This document shows, piece after piece, positions 40,857-61,862 of a DNA stretch of 64,000 nucleotides (position 1 is the first letter of the stretch; each line of letters starts with the position of its first letter). The stretch covers positions 2,848,001 through 2,912,000 of the forward strand of contig CAVWLP010000002.1 of NCBI GenBank assembly GCA_963755915.1. The letters are read 5' to 3'. The translations under genes and the position numbers were made by a program. The DNA is from an uncultured Phycisphaerales bacterium. GTDB lineage: Bacteria > Planctomycetota > Phycisphaerae > Tepidisphaerales > Tepidisphaeraceae. The notes under the pieces were generated by a model that was given only the letters and a program-made list of their open reading frames with translations, made no database searches and was not told the DNA's origin.

Positions 40857-43412
40857 TCATTCCAACGTTCCGCGCGTCACCCCAAACTGGTTGAGCACCC
40901 TCAACTGCCGCCACGCCGTCCGCGGAGCCTCGATCCCCGCCAGCACCCGCGCATACCGGTCTAGCACCGGGCTAACCTCTCCCTCATCGTGTCGCAACAA
41001 TTCCACCCGAAAATGGCGCAAACCGCTCTCCAGCATCCGCGGCACAAACTCCGCCGCCGATTGCGCCGACCCGTTGTAAACCGTATTCCTGCACCCCACA
41101 TCCGCCACCAGCGGATGCGGCGTCCCCGCCCGGTCCTTCAATTCCACCTTGTGCGACTCGCAAGGCCTCCCGCAGTCGCGGTAATCCTTCCCATTCGAAA
41201 GCGTGTGCGCAAACACACAATGCTCCATGTGAAACATCGGCATATGCTGATGAATCACCACTTCAAACATCTCCACCGCGAACCGCCCCAGCATCGCCGA
41301 AAGCTGCGCCCAGTTCAGGTCATAGCTCGGCGTCATTCGCCTCACCCCATGCCGCATCAAAATCGCCGCCGTCAATTCATTCGAAACATTCAGCGAATAA
41401 TCCGCGACGAGAGGAATCTCCGGACACAGCTCCCGATAAAGACAAAGCCCCGCCAGATTGCGAATCAGAATCAGATCCGGCCCCGCCGCCGCGACGAGCT
41501 TCAGCAGCCCCTGCTCCGGCGGCTTCACGATCCGAATCGTTGCCAGCCCAATCTTCACCCCCGCATCCCGCGCCATCCGTACCGCCTCCGGATATTTGCG
41601 AATGTCCTCCAATTCGCAGTAAACCGCCGCCAGCTCAACAAGATCGGTAGGGGGCCTCCACTTCACCGCCGTCCGAAGCTGCTCCATCGTCCGCGCCAAT
41701 ACATACAACTGCGGCTTTTCCCCCATTTCCCCCTCTCCCGGTACTCTGGGAGAGGGCAGGGGTGAGGGCCTGCAATCATTTTCGAAACAAGTTGCAGTTG
41801 CCCGTCGCATTTCCTCCAGCCCATCCGCATTGATGATTCGCGCGTTCCCTTCCCTCATCCGCAAAATCTCCCCACTTGCCCGCCTCCGCAAATCGTTCAG
41901 CACACTCTTAGGAATCATCACCGCCGGAAACTCCGCCCCCGCGTCCCCATTCACAAAAACCTCCCCCAACTCCAGCGGCGTATCCCCCAGCCGCCCAAAC
42001 TGCTCCCGAAAAATCTCCCGCGTCATCGGGAATTTGATCGCACACTCAAGCTCGCGCTCCCATCCCACTTCCACCCGATTCCCCGATTCATCTCTTACCG
42101 AAATTCCCAGCGGCTTCCCCTCAATCGCAGTCACGTTCACGCAAATCGCCACCCGCCGTGCCACCCGGTCCCGGCTGAACGAATGCTCCAGCCGCTTGCG
42201 GATTTCCGGATCATCCGTCTTCCACACGATCGACCCCATCGACACCGCAGGCAGGCTTACGTCCCCGCGGTAAAACCCAATCGCAATCCGTCCGCCGCCG
42301 CCCGGCTCCGCGCTGACGATCCGCCCTCCCTGTTCATCCTGTTCCGGATGCCCCTCATCAAAGACAACCCCGTCCCCGATTTTCAGATTCGCCCCGCGCT
42401 CCAGTTGCACGAATATTCCCCGCTCCGATTTACCCACCACGCTCCCCGCCCTCACCCCCCGGCTCTTGGGAAACCGCGCGTGTACCAGCCGCTGATGATT
42501 CACCCCATCCAGAAACCCATGCGTAAACCCGCGCGAAAAGCTCTGCGCCAAATCCATCCGCTGCTGCGCGGATGGATCAAACTGCCGCGCCTCCCTCACC
42601 GCATCCACCGCCGCGCGGTACACCTGCGTCGTCGCCGCCACGTAATGCGCGCTTTTCAGCCTCCCCTCGATTTTCAAACATTTCACCCCGATCTCCGCAA
42701 GTTCCTTCACCAGGTCAAACGCCGCCAGGTCCTGCGGGCTGAGCAGATACGCCTTGTCCCCCATCTCCCGCCGATTCCCATCCACGATCAGATCGTAAGG
42801 CAGCCGGCAAGCCTGCGCACACTGCCCACGATTCGCACTCCTTTGCCCAATCGATTCGCTGGTCAAACACTGCCCGCTATACGAAACGCACAATGCCCCA
42901 TGCACGAACACTTCCACCGGAACCGCGCTTTCGGCCGCGATCTTCGCGATATCCCCGGTCGAAAGCTCCCGCGCCAGAATCACCCGCCCCACGCCCAGCG
43001 ACCGCACAAATTCCACCCCCAGCGGCTCCGTCAGCGTCATCTGCGTCGACCCATGCACCGCCAACTCCGGGCAAATCCGCTGCGCCAGCTCCGCCAACCC
43101 CAAATCCTGCACGATAATCGCATCCGCCCCGGCCGCCGCAATCGCCTCAACAAACCGCGCCGCTTCCTCCAACTCATCCGAAAAGATCAGCGTATTCATC
43201 GCAACATATCCGCGCACGTTGAGATGATGCAGAAACGTCATAATCTCCGGCAATTCCTCAACCGAAAAATTCGCCGCCCGATGCCGCGCATTAAACGCCG
43301 AAAGCCCAAAGTAAACCGCATCCGCCCCATTCGCCACCGCCGCGCGCATCGCCTCCCAGTCCCCGGCGGGGGAGAGCAACTCAGGACCGTTCATCTCTTC
43401 GGTCTTCGACAT
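40857..43412 (-). CDS. U32 peptidase-family protein with DUF3656 (RlhA-like)
   Basis: PELLSPAG, GADAVY, HGALCVSYSGQC, NRGQCAQACR and KIEGR. Confidence 0.92.
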   Translation of the reverse strand: MSKTEEMNGPELLSPAGDWEAMRAAVANGADAVYFGLSAFNARHRAANFSVEELPEIMTFLHHLNVRGYVAMNTLIFSDELEEAARFVEAIAAAGADAIIVQDLGLAELAQRICPELAVHGSTQMTLTEPLGVEFVRSLGVGRVILARELSTGDIAKIAAESAVPVEVFVHGALCVSYSGQCLTSESIGQRSANRGQCAQACRLPYDLIVDGNRREMGDKAYLLSPQDLAAFDLVKELAEIGVKCLKIEGRLKSAHYVAATTQVYRAAVDAVREARQFDPSAQQRMDLAQSFSRGFTHGFLDGVNHQRLVHARFPKSRGVRAGSVVGKSERGIFVQLERGANLKIGDGVVFDEGHPEQDEQGGRIVSAEPGGGGRIAIGFYRGDVSLPAVSMGSIVWKTDDPEIRKRLEHSFSRDRVARRVAICVNVTAIEGKPLGISVRDESGNRVEVGWERELECAIKFPMTREIFREQFGRLGDTPLELGEVFVNGDAGAEFPAVMIPKSVLNDLRRRASGEILRMREGNARIINADGLEEMRRATATCFENDCRPSPLPSPRVPGEGEMGEKPQLYVLARTMEQLRTAVKWRPPTDLVELAAVYCELEDIRKYPEAVRMARDAGVKIGLATIRIVKPPEQGLLKLVAAAGPDLILIRNLAGLCLYRELCPEIPLVADYSLNVSNELTAAILMRHGVRRMTPSYDLNWAQLSAMLGRFAVEMFEVVIHQHMPMFHMEHCVFAHTLSNGKDYRDCGRPCESHKVELKDRAGTPHPLVADVGCRNTVYNGSAQSAAEFVPRMLESGLRHFRVELLRHDEGEVSPVLDRYARVLAGIEAPRTAWRQLRVLNQFGVTRGTLE
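41729..41770 (-). repeat. REP-like palindrome inserted in frame in the U32 gene
   Basis: Nearly identical to 13778-13819; translated as RPSPLPSPRVPGEG. Confidence 0.88.
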
Positions 43413-43635
43413 CTATTTGGCGAATGATACACCGTCACCCGCCGCCGTTCACTTTCGATCCTCACTAAATAGCAATCTGATTTTCTTGGCGTCTTGGCGG
43501 TTAAAAATCTTATAACCGCCAAGAAACTATGAAGCCGAGCCTTTCTCGGGACGTGAACGGGGTCAAAATGCCCCAAGTATGAACGAGCGTACCGCGTAGG
43601 TCGCTCAAACGTCTTTTTTGAGAAAGGACTCGGCA

Positions 43636-44679
43636 ATGCGAATTCTCGCTTTGGACCTGGGAAAGAACAAGAGCGTTTTTGTGGATTATGTCACCGGCGG
43701 TGGAGAAAGAACGTTCGGCAAGATCGGCACCAATGCCCACGAGGTGCAAAAACTACTCGAGCGGGTGCGTCCGGATCGACTGGTCATCGAGGCCGGTCCG
43801 GCGGCAGGATGGGTTTGTGATCTGGCGGAGCGGAACAATGTTCCCGTCCAGGTGGCCAATGGCAACGATGAACGCTGGCGCTGGAAGACGGTGAAGGAGA
43901 AGAGTGATCGTAAAGACGCGCTGAAGATGGCGGCGATGTCGGAGATGGATTCGCTGCCGACGGTGCACGTGCCCAAGGCATCGGTTCGGCAGTGGCGTTC
44001 ATTGATTGAATACAGACACGGCCTGGTGGATCGCCGCACGGCGCTCAAGAACTCGATCCGATCAATCTACGAGCGGCAGGGTTTGTATTTGCCCTCGGCG
44101 ACCAAGGCGTGGACGAAAGCGCGACTGGAGGAAATGAGGAAGGAAGCAGCGGCCGCATCGGTGGAAGATCTGTGGCTGTTTCAGATCGGTTGTGAGGTGG
44201 CGCAACTGGAGCACCTGGAGAAGCAGATCGAAACTGTCGAAAGCAAGCTTCAGGAGTTGGGCCAGGCCAACAAAGCGGTGAAACGATTGCAGGAGGTGCC
44301 CGGCGTTGGTCCGCGGCTGAGCGAGGCGGTGGCGGTGATCATTGATGATCCCAGGCGATTCAAGAATGCACGTCAGGTGGGATGTTACGTGGGTCTGACG
44401 CCGCGGCGCTGGCAGAGCGGCGACAGCGATCGCCAGGGGCGGATCAGCAAGGCAGGCAACGCGCTGCTGCGGGAGTTGCTGGTGGAGGTGGCGTGGCTGG
44501 GGGTTCATCGCAATACGTGGATGAAGGACGTGTACGAGAGGGTTCTACGTGACAGCGAGAAGCGCAAGAAGATCGCGATTGTTGCGGTAGCCAGGAGATT
44601 ACTGGTGAAGCTGTGGGCGATGCTGCGGGACGGAACCCGATGGAGAGAACCCCAGCGATCGCTGACGGCGGCCACTTGA
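43636..44679 (+). CDS. IS110-family recombinase
   Basis: DEDD RuvC-like LALDLGK, IEAG, KSDRKDA; VPGVG, GLTP..WQSG (catalytic Ser), GRISKAG and AVARRL. Confidence 0.95.
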   Translation: MRILALDLGKNKSVFVDYVTGGGERTFGKIGTNAHEVQKLLERVRPDRLVIEAGPAAGWVCDLAERNNVPVQVANGNDERWRWKTVKEKSDRKDALKMAAMSEMDSLPTVHVPKASVRQWRSLIEYRHGLVDRRTALKNSIRSIYERQGLYLPSATKAWTKARLEEMRKEAAAASVEDLWLFQIGCEVAQLEHLEKQIETVESKLQELGQANKAVKRLQEVPGVGPRLSEAVAVIIDDPRRFKNARQVGCYVGLTPRRWQSGDSDRQGRISKAGNALLRELLVEVAWLGVHRNTWMKDVYERVLRDSEKRKKIAIVAVARRLLVKLWAMLRDGTRWREPQRSLTAAT

Positions 44680-44689
44680 AAATCGAAAA

Positions 44690-44984
44690 GGCGATGACTG
44701 TCCCGACAAGTCGGTACAGGCGATGGAGTATCTCCCCTCCGGAAGACACCGTGTCAGAAAGCCGTTGTCTTCTGTGCAGGGGATTGAGTAGAGTTGAAGT
44801 GAAGTGGAATTGACGCGTTCGTGCAGGTTGAATGAGCAAGGCCAGACCCCGGTTGGCGTCTTAAGCTTCAAAGCTTGCCGCTAAGAATAGGGCTGGCCAT
44901 TTGTACAGTTGAATAGGCCCGCCGCCAGGCGAGAGCACTGAATAGAAGGCTCACCCAATCGACCGCATGAGCGATCAACGCCCC
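44690..44984 (+). ncRNA. Candidate bridge/seek RNA of the IS1111-type element (ends uncertain)
   Basis: Stem-loop 44840-44898 with TTGGCGTCTT and CCGCTAAGA matching the two halves of the insertion site. Confidence 0.7.
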
Positions 44985-45083
44985 TTGACAAGGCTCGGCT
45001 CATAGAAGACGCCAAGAGCGCCAAGAAAATGCAACGGGGCGAATTCAAATCGCTCTCGCGAGGAACCACCGAACTGATTTTCC

Positions 45084-46747
45084 TTAAGTTGTCCTGGAAA
45101 TCTTCAAACCACACGCAAATTCATTGGGCGTTCGATCCGGCATCGTGACCACAAGCGCATTCTCATCCCGCGAAAACCCAACCGCCCCAACGCCCAGCAA
45201 TTCCACTCCCCCAACCTGCCACGGATAAACCCGCGACCCCGCCGCCAGCGTCTTGATCCTGATCTTCCCATCCGCCGGCCACCCCAGCGCAAACGCGTAT
45301 AGCGTCTCCCCGTTTGTGGTAAAACGAATGTCCTCGGCGGTATAAGCCCGCATCGACTTCTCGTTGAAATTCCCCGACCCTTTCACATCCGGCGGCCCCT
45401 CCCCAAAAACCGAAAATGGCCGCGACCCGAAAATCCCCTCGCTATTGGCCGGCATCCACGAAGCCAGTTCCGCCAGAACTTTCCGCTCATCCTCGTCAAT
45501 CGTCCCGTCCCCGCGCACCGGAATGTTCAGTAGCAAATTCCCATTCTTGCTCACAATATCGATAAGCATCGCGATGACGGTCTTCGCCGTCTTATATCGA
45601 TGCTGCTCAAACAGCGACCGCTGATAATGCCAGCTTCCAATGCACGTATCCGTCTGCCACGCATTCGGCAGAATGTGATCCGCACGCCCGCGCTCGATAT
45701 CCAGCACCATCGTCCCGATATGATCCGGCACCAGCCGCTTGGAAGTGAGCACCGCCTGGAGCGATCCATGCCGCGCAATATTTGAATTGTAATAGTGTGC
45801 CGCGATATCCAGCCCCGCCTGGAGCAGCGGTAGCTCCGAGTCGTCAAAATAAAGCAGATCCGGCTCATACCCATCCACCAGATCCTGGCACCGCAAAAAC
45901 CATTTGTTCGCGAAATCCGGATACCTCGCCGGCGGTTGCTCGCTCCACAACTGATCGTGGCTCTGATGCCACGCCCTCATCTCCGCGATCGAGGTGATCC
46001 CATCCGGCAGCACAAACGACGGCCCGACATACAGCTCCTGCGGGTCCATCCCCTCCCACCATTTCCCCTTCCCATCTTCCTTTCTTAGCGTATACGCGTC
46101 ATACCGAACCCCCGCCATGTCGCCCACCGGATCGTACCCATACGCCGTCTGGAACCAGTGCCACGCGTGCGCGCTGTGATTGGTCACCCCGAATTTCAAT
46201 CCCCGCTGCCGCGCCGTCGTCGCCCAAATCCCCACGATGTCGCACCGCGGTCCCACGTTCACCGAGTTCCACGCGTGAAATCTCGAGTCATAGCAATCGA
46301 AGTTGTCGTGATGGTTCGCCAGCGCCACGAAATATTTCGCCCCCGCCTTCACGTACAGATCCATCAGCGCATTGGGGTCCCAGTTCCCCGCCGACCACAG
46401 CCGGTCGATTTCCATGAACCCCACTTTCGATGGATGCCCATAGTGCGCCACGTGGTACTTGTTATGCGGATGCCCCTGGATATACATCTGCCGCGCATAC
46501 CAGTCCCCCTGTTCCGGCACGCACTGCGCCGTCCAGTGCGCCCAGATCCCAAACTTCGCATCGCGAAACCACTCCGGCATCTATATTGATGCAGCGAATC
46601 CCAGTTCGCCTCAAACGGCCCCGGCGCGATCAAGCGCGCCGCTTGCGAGGTTGCCGTCTGGCCGCGAAGTGGCTTCACGCTCGATAGATAAATCGCCGGA
46701 ACCACCCCTCCCAGCATCTTGATCATTTTCCTCCGCGAGATCTTCAT
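45084..46747 (-). CDS. Alpha-L-fucosidase (GH29) with Tat signal, frameshift near 46580
   Basis: SRRKMIK leader; PEWFRDAKFGIWAHW, HHDNF, LYFDD and VSKNGNLLLN. Confidence 0.92.
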
Positions 46748-58950: not shown

Positions 58951-59269
58951 TTCGAAACTCGCAGCTAAATTAGGGCGTCCCGCCCAACGGCTTCCAGCCA
59001 TTCTCAATCGCCGATGGGCTTCCACAAGGCGTCGCCTCCGGCTGCGGTTCGGCATTTGGCAATCGGCATTCGGCATTCTCTTCCCACTCGCAGCCCTGTT
59101 GGGCGGGCGTACCAGCCCACCGTTTTGCTTACTCACCCGCCGCTTGTGTCACGGGGCTGCGCCAAAACCAGCCAGGGCGGGGCGCTTCAAAACCGGCCAA
59201 TGTGCTGACGTATTCTATACCGCATCCGTTCTATCCGACGCAACTGTTCCTTGAGTTATTGGTCCCCGT

Positions 59270-60160
59270 TCACGCCGTCTGGCCGGCGGATACCCCCACA
59301 TCAGAAGACAACGGCGGCTCTGTCACGGTGTCTTCCGGGGGGGAGCACCCTTCATCGCCGGCGGTACTCCGCCGTCCTTTTGGATTTGTCTTTTCCGGTG
59401 TCCCGGATTGGCCTGCCGTGAGCGAAGTCGAATGGCCCCCATGCCGAAGGCGGTAGCTCTTGCCGGTGATGTTGATGATCGTGGCGTGCTGCAGGAACCG
59501 ATCCAGAATGGCCGTGGCCGCCGGCACGTCGCCGATCAGCTTGGCCCAGTCCTCCAGTGGACGGTTGCTGGTCATCATCGTCGAGCGGTTCTCGTGCCGG
59601 CGCATGACGATCTCCAGCAGGCATTCGCCGCTGCGCCGCGGAAGCTGCTTCATTCCCATGTCGTCGATGATAAGCAGATCAGGCTTGAGATACCGGGCCA
59701 GCGTCTTGTCCTGGGCTCCCAGATCCTCGTCGCCTAAAAAGTCGCGGGCCAGGTCGAAGATGGATCGGTACAGGACCACCAAGCCGCTCTTGATCGCCTG
59801 GTGTCCGATGGCCTGGGCCAAAAACGATTTGCCCACGCCGGGCGGACCCAGCAAGAGCACGTCACGTTTGTCACGAATGAACTGGCCGGCGGCCAGATCG
59901 TGAATCTGTTTGCGTTTGATGGAGGTGTTGAAGGAGAAGTCGAACTCGTCGAGGTTTTTGGTGTCGCGGAACATCGCCGCCTTGACGCGCCGGCCGATCT
60001 GCCGGCTGGATCGGACGTTCAGTTCATCCTGAAGGATCAGTTCCAAAAACTCACTGTGGTCGAGCCGATTGCCGGCCGCCTCGCTCAGGCGAACTTCAAG
60101 GCTGCTCGCCAGACCTGAAAGCCGAAGTTGCTTGAGCGTCTGCATCAACGAAGGTCTCAT
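59270..60160 (-). CDS. istB: IS21 ATPase IstB
   Basis: FDFSFN, GPPGVGKS, LLIIDD, TSN and AILDRF. Confidence 0.95.
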   Translation of the reverse strand: MRPSLMQTLKQLRLSGLASSLEVRLSEAAGNRLDHSEFLELILQDELNVRSSRQIGRRVKAAMFRDTKNLDEFDFSFNTSIKRKQIHDLAAGQFIRDKRDVLLLGPPGVGKSFLAQAIGHQAIKSGLVVLYRSIFDLARDFLGDEDLGAQDKTLARYLKPDLLIIDDMGMKQLPRRSGECLLEIVMRRHENRSTMMTSNRPLEDWAKLIGDVPAATAILDRFLQHATIINITGKSYRLRHGGHSTSLTAGQSGTPEKTNPKGRRSTAGDEGCSPPEDTVTEPPLSSDVGVSAGQTA

Positions 60161-61862
60161 GGGGTGGACTCCCTTCGGCTCTGCTCAGGGCAGGCCTGTA
60201 AAGGTTGTGCGGCAGGCAAAGCCTCCGCTTGGGTGATTGCGTCGCGTACGAACTGTCCGTAATCGGCCAGTCCGCGGATGATTGGATGTTCCTGAACAAA
60301 CTCGAAGTGTTGTTGAACCGGTGCGCCGTTTTGGTGTTCGATGAGCTGCCGCAGGGAGCGCAGGTGATACGCGCCATGCCCCAGAGCAATCTCGCAGGCT
60401 CGTTCCACGGCCGGTCGCGGCTGCTGATTGGCCAGCGACAGCAGCCCCATCAACACGCGCACGCCTTCGATGCCGCGATGCTGAAGCATTGACTGCGCCC
60501 ACTGCGTGGCGTGCGGCCCGATGCATTCGATCCGCTGGAGAAGCCAGGTCGTTCCACGCTCGATGCCGCTGATCTTCTCCGGCAGGATATGGGCGTCTTG
60601 CGTCGAGAACCTGCCCGGCGGACGCTGCGCGTGCAGAGCGATCGCACGCATCTTCTGATCGAACAGCCGGACCGTGCGCCCGTCCCACCGCGCCCAGACC
60701 CGCTGGCCCAAAAACTCCGGCGGGACCGAATAGTACGCCCCCTTGATCTCCACGTGCCCGTCGCGGTGAACACTGCGCAACGCCTCGGTGAAAAGATCGA
60801 ATCGCACCGGCGGCAGAGCCAACAGTGCCGGCTTCTCTACCTGCTCGAAGACTTCCTTCACCTGCCGCCGCGTCGTGCCGTGGATGCGCGTGTCGGCCAC
60901 GCTCTTCTCCCACGTCAGCAGATGCGCGTTCTGATCCGAGAGCGAGGCGAATTGCCGGCCTTTGAGAGCATTGCTCTTCACATAGCCGATGCCCCGCTCG
61001 ATCTTCCCCTTGTGCCGCGGCGTGTACGGCTTGGTGGGCAGAATGGCGATTCCATAATGTTCGGCGAACGACCGGACCTTGGGACACAACTCCGCCTCGA
61101 ACCAGTCCGCCCGCGTCACCGCCGCGCGAAGATTGTCGATCACCAGCGCTGACGGCATCCCGCCGAAGTGCGTAAAGGCATTTTCCAGACAACGCAGAAA
61201 ATCATCGGTCGTCTGCCGCTCCACCGCCTCGGCGTACCCCTTGCGGCTGTGGCTCAGCACAATGCGGAAGACCCAGGTTGCTTTGCGTTTGCCGTCAGGA
61301 CCGACCAGGGCGCACCCCGGCCGAAGTCCACCTGCGCCTCGGCTCCCGGCTCGCATTCCATCCGGCGAAAGGGCGCCGGCGCGGCAGCCGAGAGCTTCTT
61401 GATGAACCGGCGCACGCTGTAATAGCTGCCGGCATAGCCGTGATCGCTGGAGATGTCTTGATAAATCCGCTGGGCCGTCAGCCCGGCTTCCAACTTCTGA
61501 ACAATGACCTCACGCCAGGGCGATGCCGTACTGACCGACCCGATGGGCGCGCCGGATAACCCGGTGGCGCGCTCTCCGAGCCGCCTGCGGCGAGCACCGT
61601 CGAGCCGCCTGCGGCGAGCACCGTCGAGCCGCCTGCGGCGAGCACCGTCGAGCCGCCTGCGGCGAGCACCGTCGAGCCGAGGGGCGCGCTGGCCGGTTTT
61701 GAATCCGATCCGGGCGCCGCAGGATCGCCGCCCGACAACCGGATGTGGCGTCCAACGGTCTCCCGGTGAACGCCGAGTTGGCGGGCGATGTTCCGATTGG
61801 ACCAGCCGCTGCGCAAGTGCCAAAATTGCTTGTACTTCCGCCATCTTGAGTTGATTGGCCAT
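60157..61862 (-). CDS. istA: IS21 transposase IstA, frameshifts near 61805 and 61315
   Basis: HTH SNRNIARQLGVHRETV, PG.EAQVDF, IDN, KGKIER, HGTT and YSVP. Confidence 0.92.
61577..61679 (-). repeat. 24-bp tandem repeat, 4.3 copies, inside istA (GSTVLAAG)
   Basis: CGAGCCGCCTGCGGCGAGCACCGT repeated exactly. Confidence 0.95.

Follow-up and report, generated by a model that had tools for sequence, protein, structure and literature searches.

We describe an insertion sequence of the IS1111 group in a 64,000-nucleotide stretch of DNA from an uncultured Phycisphaerales bacterium (GenBank assembly GCA_963755915.1, contig CAVWLP010000002.1, forward-strand positions 2,848,001 to 2,912,000; this whole stretch is called the window, and all positions refer to it). 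With high confidence we conclude that the element was recently active and that its own guide RNA specifies its target, a palindromic repeat of the host genome. The conclusion is carried by nearly identical copies at one kind of site and by two short guides that change together with the target from relative to relative. The anatomy of the element, its site specificity, the guide-target covariation and the covariation of the RNA helices were established in the present analysis.

Target Site and Copies

The element and its target are composed of the following features.

43524 to 45008, plus strand: IS1111-type insertion sequence, 1485 bp
43485 to 43503, no strand assigned: CTTGGCGTCTTGGCGGTTA, left arm of the palindromic host repeat; on the minus strand it is an unoccupied target site in its own right
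43513 to 43523, plus strand: left target half TAACCGCCAAG with the AG core at its end
45009 to 45019, plus strand: right target half ACGCCAAGAGC

The genome (three contigs, 6.6 Mb) contains nine full copies with 0 to 2 differences over 1485 bp. All nine are inserted in a single orientation between TAACCGCCAAG on the left and ACGCCAAGA on the right; past ACGCCAAGA the right flanks differ, and outside the repeat the flanks of the nine copies are unrelated. In the copy of the window TAACCGCCAAG ends at 43523 and ACGCCAAG begins at 45009. Removal of 43524 to 45008 joins the two and therefore restores TAACCGCCAAGACGCCAAG, the exact reverse complement of the arm at 43485 to 43503. As empty sites, the genome contains 17 occurrences of the restored 19-mer and 22 of the 15-mer CCGCCAAGACGCCAA, the latter compared to about 0.01 expected by our own estimate from genome size. 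Together with the nine copies, 9 of 31 sites are thus occupied. The empty sites have a single AAGA, and insertion is site- and orientation-specific without target duplication in 9/9 copies.

Each site is one arm of an intergenic palindrome. These palindromes make up a small family with the layout TTCTTGGCGCTCTTGGCGTCTTGGCGGTTA-loop-TAACCGCCAAGACGCCAAGAGCGCCAAGAA, and each of them offers one target site per strand. Thirteen palindromes are intact (at most one substitution per inner arm), and five of them carry the element. Targeting of palindromic repeats has been published for ISPa11 (PMC11187229) and ISPpu9 (PMC12288879). A preliminary description of this DNA, made from its letters alone, had identified the target as one arm of a multicopy intergenic repeat restored by the same deletion, and had proposed that other copies be sought in the predicted site. 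Direct reading locates all of its quoted sequences and confirms the restored arm, and none of the nine copies lies at an unrelated site.

Target Guides and Their Covariation with the Target

The two target guides are located in the non-coding region 3′ of the transposase gene, within one stem-loop.

44840 to 44898, plus strand: target-binding stem-loop, two internal-loop guides and a central hairpin (folding, compensatory changes)
44853 to 44862, plus strand: top-strand guide UUGGCGUCUU (DNA TTGGCGTCTT), Watson-Crick complement of AAGACGCCAA, i.e. core and right target half
44863 to 44876, plus strand: central hairpin AAGCUU-CA-AAGCUU, 6 bp, compensatory changes at 3 of 4 pairs
44878 to 44886, plus strand: bottom-strand guide CCGCUAAGA (DNA CCGCTAAGA), equal to CCGCCAAGA except for one U that would pair G-U

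CCGCCAAGA consists of the left target half and the core and can be paired on the bottom strand by CCGCUAAGA. Both guides cover the core and overlap on AAGA. Direct reading upholds the early claim of one exact guide and one guide with a single wobble. The enclosing stem had been given by its ends, GGCCAG at 44840 to 44845 and CTGGCC at 44893 to 44898; these are present, while the helix is longer and comprises GGCCAG-A-CCCC paired with GGGG-CUGGCC. The order of the guides equals that published for IS1111 seekRNAs, in which the complement of the top strand lies 5′ of the bottom-strand match and both overlap at the insertion point (Siddiquee et al., PMC11187229). The probability of chance matches was estimated with 3000 shuffles of each of two kinds of the 329-nt non-coding region. 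A core-anchored top-strand guide of at least 9 nt was obtained in 2 and 4 of 3000 shuffles, respectively, and both guides in the observed order and spacing in none.

The decisive test was made with relatives that have other targets. A protein search gave 3511 relatives with E ≤ 0.001 among 8000 candidates scored, many of them 60 to 90% identical. Scans of genome and metagenome contigs yielded 160 loci, 52 of which have both ends and a conserved anchor, corresponding to 31 distinct guide regions; the named loci closest to the element come from Phycisphaerales and other Phycisphaerae assemblies. One group (D: L049, L069 and L071, with L049 and L069 forming one guide region) was excluded because its non-coding region is rearranged and its first guide comprises only 5 nt, leaving 30 variants. 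For these, the contiguous core-anchored pairing of each guide position with the flanks was scored, with equal positional freedom for own and foreign flanks. The mean match is 7.8 nt with the own flanks and 3.6 nt with the flanks of other elements, for the first guide as well as for the second. The summed match amounts to 468, compared to 226 ± 16.5 (maximum 308) for permuted pairings, and 0/5000 permutations were as high. When only Watson-Crick pairs are counted, this sum is 404 versus 174 ± 13.9, again with 0/5000 as high. By our own count the targets represent about two dozen sequence classes, and every left flank ends in AG. The covariation of guides and flanks anticipated in the preliminary description is thereby borne out.

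A close relative illustrates the principle. In another Phycisphaerales assembly, four copies (L031 to L034) with 91% protein identity are inserted between GACGCCAAG and AGCGCCAAG, one repeat unit further along a palindrome of the same kind. Their first guide is UUGGCGCUCU in place of UUGGCGUCUU, and the second is unchanged. Judged by these sequences, this is a natural one-step retargeting via the first guide only.

Predicted Structure of the Guide RNA

Outside the target-binding stem-loop, the guide RNA is predicted to comprise the following parts.

44813 to 44838, plus strand: closing helix P1, 5′ strand (folding, own-versus-other pairing test)
44899 to 44913, plus strand: junction strand AUUUGUACAGUUGAA between the two stem-loops, containing ACAGUU, a weak candidate for left-end pairing
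44914 to 44940, plus strand: second stem-loop UAGGC-C-CGC ... GCG-AGA-GC-A-CUG, near-invariant in sequence and always paired
44949 to 44978, plus strand: closing helix P1, 3′ strand (folding, own-versus-other pairing test)

Folding of the 3′ region (44680 to 45008), which had been suggested at the outset, revealed a stable structure with z = -5.19 against 100 shuffles; the shorter piece 44800 to 44960 alone reached z = -1.84 only. Covariation of the structure was examined in 28 relatives. Pairing amounts to 98% of cells, compared to 87.5% in shuffles and 29 to 43% with slid partners; for the outer stem and the central hairpin it is 96 to 98%. Over the whole structure both sides have changed in 11 of 23 pairs, and the covariation score of 0.300 exceeds the 0.120 of shuffles (0/500 as high). 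As the second stem-loop is near-invariant, covariation neither supports nor contradicts the pairing at 44914 to 44940.

The sequence of P1 varies by sub-group (GGUUG/CAAUC, GUCGAUG/CAUCGAC, GAGUUG/CAACUC). P1 was not recovered by RNAalifold on the wider alignment, where the columns are shifted, and for this reason it was tested by the length of own versus other duplexes. Own pairs are modestly ahead, with a mean of 7.2 versus 6.4 and 3/5000 permutations as high. The target-binding stem-loop, the second stem-loop and the closing helix would together form a three-way junction of about 166 nt (44813 to 44978), in the range of the long seekRNA forms of 145 to 170 nt (Siddiquee et al., PMC11187229). 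Neither the guide RNA nor the side module described below was matched by an Rfam entry; sR28 (18.7 bits, inside the coding region) and mir-4900 (17.9 bits) remained far below their gathering scores.

Transposase and Anatomy of the Element

43636 to 44679, plus strand: transposase gene, 347 aa (translation of the open reading frame, Pfam and NCBIfam domains)
43527 to 43543, plus strand: left subterminal inverted repeat CTATGAAGCCGAGCCTT, kept in relatives
44990 to 45005, plus strand: right subterminal inverted repeat AAGGCTCGGCTCATAG

The transposase matches PF01548 (E 2.9e-10, DEDD/RuvC-like, N-terminal) and PF02371 (E 2e-24, Transposase_20, C-terminal), and the NCBIfam model NF033542 'IS110 family RNA-guided transposase' with 217.9 bits compared to a cut-off of 140. 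Solved relatives recognized by sequence are ISCro4 (E 2.9e-18) and IS621 (E 1.2e-16), with the similarity confined to the C-terminal half. Among plasmid-borne proteins, the best match is 40% identical and labelled only 'IS110 family'. D7, E52, D91, D94, S261 and G262 are invariant across 16 relatives; they are candidate catalytic residues, the first four for the DEDD motif, assigned by position, not from a structure. S261-G262 is contained in GLTPRRWQSG, which fits the GL-P----S(t)G motif. An open frame of 359 aa is intact in all nine genome copies.

The 3′ non-coding region (329 nt, 44680 to 45008) is longer than the 5′ one (112 nt, 43524 to 43635). The inverted repeats CTATGA(A)GCCGAGCCTT (43527 to 43543) and AAGGCTCGGCTCATAG share a perfect 11-bp core, and the remainder differs by one 1-nt indel. 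Such repeats measure 11 to 13 bp in IS1111 elements according to Siddiquee et al. (PMC11187229) and 7 to 17 bp according to Durrant et al. (PMC11208160). The boundary is ambiguous over the four bases of the shared AAGA. In relatives whose left flanks end in CCAG or ACAG the right end still reads ...ATAGAAG, which reduces the shared core to AG. As drawn, the extensions beyond the repeats are 3 and 3 nt, and sliding within AAGA changes them from 6/0 to 2/4 with a constant sum of 6. Published IS1111 transposases have 330 to 350 aa and the GL-P----S(t)G motif, and extensions of usually 7 and 3 bp, occasionally 6 and 3, are described as usual, not defining (Siddiquee et al. 2024, PMC11187229). With its subterminal repeats, 3′ non-coding region, protein length and motif, guide order and duplication-free site specificity, the element is assigned by its sequence to the IS1111 type of the IS110 family. 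The recombinase had been recognized as such in the preliminary description, and the domain matches together with the layout and motif corroborate this.

The host palindrome, contained in the flanks 43413 to 43523 and 45009 to 45083, is located between the stop of a minus-strand gene at 45084 to 46580 and the start of another at 40857 to 43412. As the element separates these co-oriented genes, it may disturb termination or read-through there.

Recognition of the Element's Ends

44941 to 44948, plus strand: AAUAGAAG, candidate donor guide that reads in the sense of the right end ATAGAAG

ATAGAAG is present twice in the element, at 44942 to 44948 and at the right end (45002 to 45008). AAUAGAAG sits in the multi-loop of the three-way junction closed by P1, not in a second internal loop. 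The internal-loop layout initially proposed applies to the target guides; the candidate donor bases are found in the multi-loop, as reported for many IS1111 orthologues (Durrant et al., PMC11208160). In the close family both AAUAGAAG and the right end are invariant, and more distant relatives had to be consulted. In 72 distinct elements, the triplet following CATAG at the right end was compared with the triplet following AUAG in the guide.

Right end AAG, guide AAG: 55 elements, and three more that contain the AAG motif, but not as the last one picked by the rule
Right end TCG, guide TCG: 6 elements
Right end TCA, TAG, TTG, TTG, guide TCG: 4 elements
Right end AAT, AAT, AGG, AGT, guide AAG: 4 elements

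Crossing between the A-class and the T-class was observed in 0/72 elements. Beyond these, a Sedimentisphaerales group (eight copies) has AAA at the right end and AUAGAAA in the guide. At the level of sequence classes, the early suggestion that ATAGAAG may serve as a donor guide is therefore supported. We regard the agreement as supportive, not conclusive, for AAUAGAAG as a donor guide that would pair with the right end.

For the left end, ACAGUU (44905 to 44910) was considered, which could pair with the left-end AACTAT with one C-A mismatch; left ends with AATTAT go together with ACAAUU or ACGAUU. It is only a weak candidate: neither the Sedimentisphaerales group nor the clade with TCG ends follows the pattern, and the mismatched position varies freely. 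In two members of the latter clade (L180, L067) we also observed two or three tandem copies of CCAGCTCGAA..TTGGCGGCTC before the guide stem, which gives the impression of duplicated guide-like units.

Promoter and Transcripts

44985 to 44990, plus strand: TTGACA, candidate -35 box, invariant in 28/28 aligned relatives; the promoter would be complete only in the circle

TTGACA lies 18 nt from the right end, and circularization would consequently bring it in front of a junction-spanning GAAACT, with a spacing of 17 nt. In this family a right-end -35 box and a left-end -10 box are described to form a promoter together (PMC11187229, PMC12288879). A simple scan of the integrated copy revealed no sigma-70-like promoter and no intrinsic terminator. 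In two metatranscriptome libraries, available as assembled contigs, traces of the region were found: one contains an exact 205-nt contig over 44639 to 44843, the other several contigs from a 91%-type relative, including one over 44811 to 45009.

Proposed Mechanism and Alternative Explanations

In the mechanism we propose, the element would encode a single DEDD/RuvC-type recombinase with a C-terminal serine domain, and a guide RNA of about 166 nt (seekRNA or bridge RNA), folded as a three-way junction, would arise from the region 3′ of the gene. One arm of this RNA would present two short guides flanking a hairpin. The 5′ guide would pair with the top strand over the core AG and the right target half, the 3′ guide with the bottom strand over the left target half and the core. 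Jointly they would specify CCGCCA-AG-ACGCCAA, an arm of the palindromic intergenic repeat, and direct an orientation-specific insertion without target duplication. The junction strand AAUAGAAG would pair with the right end as donor, and the perfect -35 box at this end would yield a promoter only once the ends are joined in a circle. By analogy with the published family, an RNA-protein complex, a circular intermediate, strand exchange at AG and processing of the RNA are to be expected as well.

Several observations weigh against this picture. The second guide, taken alone and with G-U pairs allowed, does not exceed chance in this element (548 and 634 of 3000 shuffles), and one guide fits poorly in 5 of the 30 relatives. 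The second guide matches over 3 nt in L116, where a single mismatch interrupts an otherwise 8-nt run, and over 2 nt in L130; the first guide matches over 1 nt in L140, whose right end is altered too (to AGG), and over 4 nt each in L035 and L133. Both points would be in accordance with a recombinase protein that reads the target alone, the guide-like stretches being chance matches or passengers. This explanation is nevertheless extremely improbable, since the guides follow about two dozen targets to a degree that no permutation attained, proteins that are 91% identical go with different targets and with a change in the corresponding guide, and the two guides never occurred in the right order in the shuffled sequences. 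The extensions of 6 nt in total fall short of the usual IS1111 sum of 9 to 10. The would-be -10 box GAAACT fits the consensus at 3 of 6 positions only (including A2 and T6), and the metatranscriptome contigs are a weak sign of a guide RNA because carry-over of DNA is possible. Joints of a circle or of an empty site were not seen in the contigs of the runs examined, in which the uncovered part proves nothing. The lack of an observed transposition event or circular form would suit a dead relic of a known kind, no longer mobile, whose nine copies spread by duplication of larger segments. We consider such a relic improbable, as the copies are nearly identical over their full length and all retain the open frame, the flanks beyond the repeat are unrelated and all catalytic candidates are conserved.

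The donor side calls for more caution. The RNA may pick the target while the ends are recognized by a protein binding to the subterminal repeats, AAUAGAAG being kept for another reason, for example folding of the RNA or protein binding. No consistent left-end guide could be found among the relatives. The donor-side bases and the ends are near-invariant in the close family, which leaves little power for covariation, and since the elements are related, the donor-guide signal corresponds to about two or three independent switches. Where Siddiquee et al. (PMC11187229) address the recognition of IS1111 ends, the question is left open. In contrast, the guide triplet follows the class of the right end (AAG, TCG, AAA) without a cross-class case in the 72 elements and the additional group, and the multi-loop position agrees with the orthologues of Durrant et al. 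Recognition of the ends by protein is therefore the less likely explanation, although one with an appreciable chance of being correct.

Comparison with Known Systems

The element resembles ISPa11, ISEc11, ISKpn4 and ISPst6, for which seekRNAs have been demonstrated (PMC11187229), in its single DEDD transposase (about 340 aa, GLxPxxxxS/TG motif), its subterminal inverted repeats, the long 3′ non-coding region, the order and overlap of the guides and a long RNA form of 145 to 170 nt, which is predicted here. ISPa11 also targets palindromic repeats, and natural retargeting between close relatives is common to these elements and the present one (PMC11187229). Unlike them, the present element belongs to a different phylum and has no close protein relative among named elements (40% identity for the best plasmid-borne match), its extensions sum to 6 nt in place of the 9 to 10 described there, and an extra conserved module lies between gene and guide RNA.

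The core is AG in the present element. That of IS621 is CT. With the bridge RNA systems of IS621 and ISCro4 (PMC11208160; PDB 8wt6, 9t56) the element shares the recombinase family, two guides that cover a 2-nt core and address both strands, and a separate donor-recognizing part of the guide RNA, which is a candidate here. As described for IS621 and ISCro4, their RNA is encoded 5′ of the gene with the order of the guides reversed and the donor is recognized in a second internal loop, whereas the candidate donor bases here are located in the multi-loop (PMC11208160). ISPpu9 of Pseudomonas putida likewise inserts into repetitive extragenic palindromes with an invariant AG recombination dinucleotide; in contrast to the present element, it is described as a member of the IS110 group without inverted repeats, whose circles create no new promoter (PMC12288879).

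A Conserved 3′ Module and Other Insertion Sequences

44697 to 44783, plus strand: side module conserved in relatives, consisting of a variable hairpin, the block TCTCCCCTCCGGAAGACACCG (44731 to 44751) and a hairpin with CCGTTGTCTTCTG (44762 to 44774)

The side module is situated between the stop codon of the transposase and the guide RNA. Its 21-nt block TCTCCCCTCCGGAAGACACCG pairs with a conserved downstream UGUCUUC and is near-invariant in the 30 variants aligned, of 31 found. These variants belong to IS1111-type relatives down to about 45% protein identity and to two unrelated IS21-type elements, always in sense orientation and 3′ of the last gene. In both IS21-type elements, with 31 and 9 copies in this genome, the block lies 3′ of istB, in the 31-copy element about 135 nt from the right end where mapped. 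The module is also found at 59288 to 59345 of the window (minus strand) and at about 40 further places of the genome. A 16-mer of the module occurred in 2 of 151 genomes of the phylum, this genome included; assemblies of this kind often lack repeats. Since the module is common among relatives of the IS1111-type element, its interpretation as a fragment captured from IS21 was rejected. Tentatively, the module may represent a signal not described so far that is shared by different transposon families, for example a processing, termination or stabilizing RNA element by which the transposase message is kept apart from the guide RNA.

The genome is rich in insertion sequences. The 31-copy IS21-type element is represented in the window at 59270 to 61356 (minus strand, right end near 59150) and encodes an IstA with rve and Mu-transposase C-terminal domains and the ATPase IstB; a second IS21 type is present in nine copies. 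Two further IS110-family types (six and four copies, e.g. C2:148766-149758 and C2:348765-349802) each have conserved flanks of their own. Three RNA-guided elements with different targets probably coexist in one genome.

Conclusion

The mechanism was described in 2024, and the targeting of palindromes by this family is already in print; the element is a clear example of a mechanism that is not new. A full-text search revealed no paper that pairs bridge RNA or IS1111 with Planctomycetota or Phycisphaerae; a nearer relative may be contained in the supplementary target logos and guide maps of the named elements. The finding extends the system to Planctomycetota and opens no new mechanistic question. 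For a young field it provides a natural series of about 30 elements with one scaffold, one pair of ends and about two dozen guide pairs. This series reveals which positions of the RNA are free and which are fixed, the latter being the AG core, the base that follows each guide (U for the first, A for the second) and the junction strands, and it is useful when compact RNA-guided recombinases are to be chosen or engineered.

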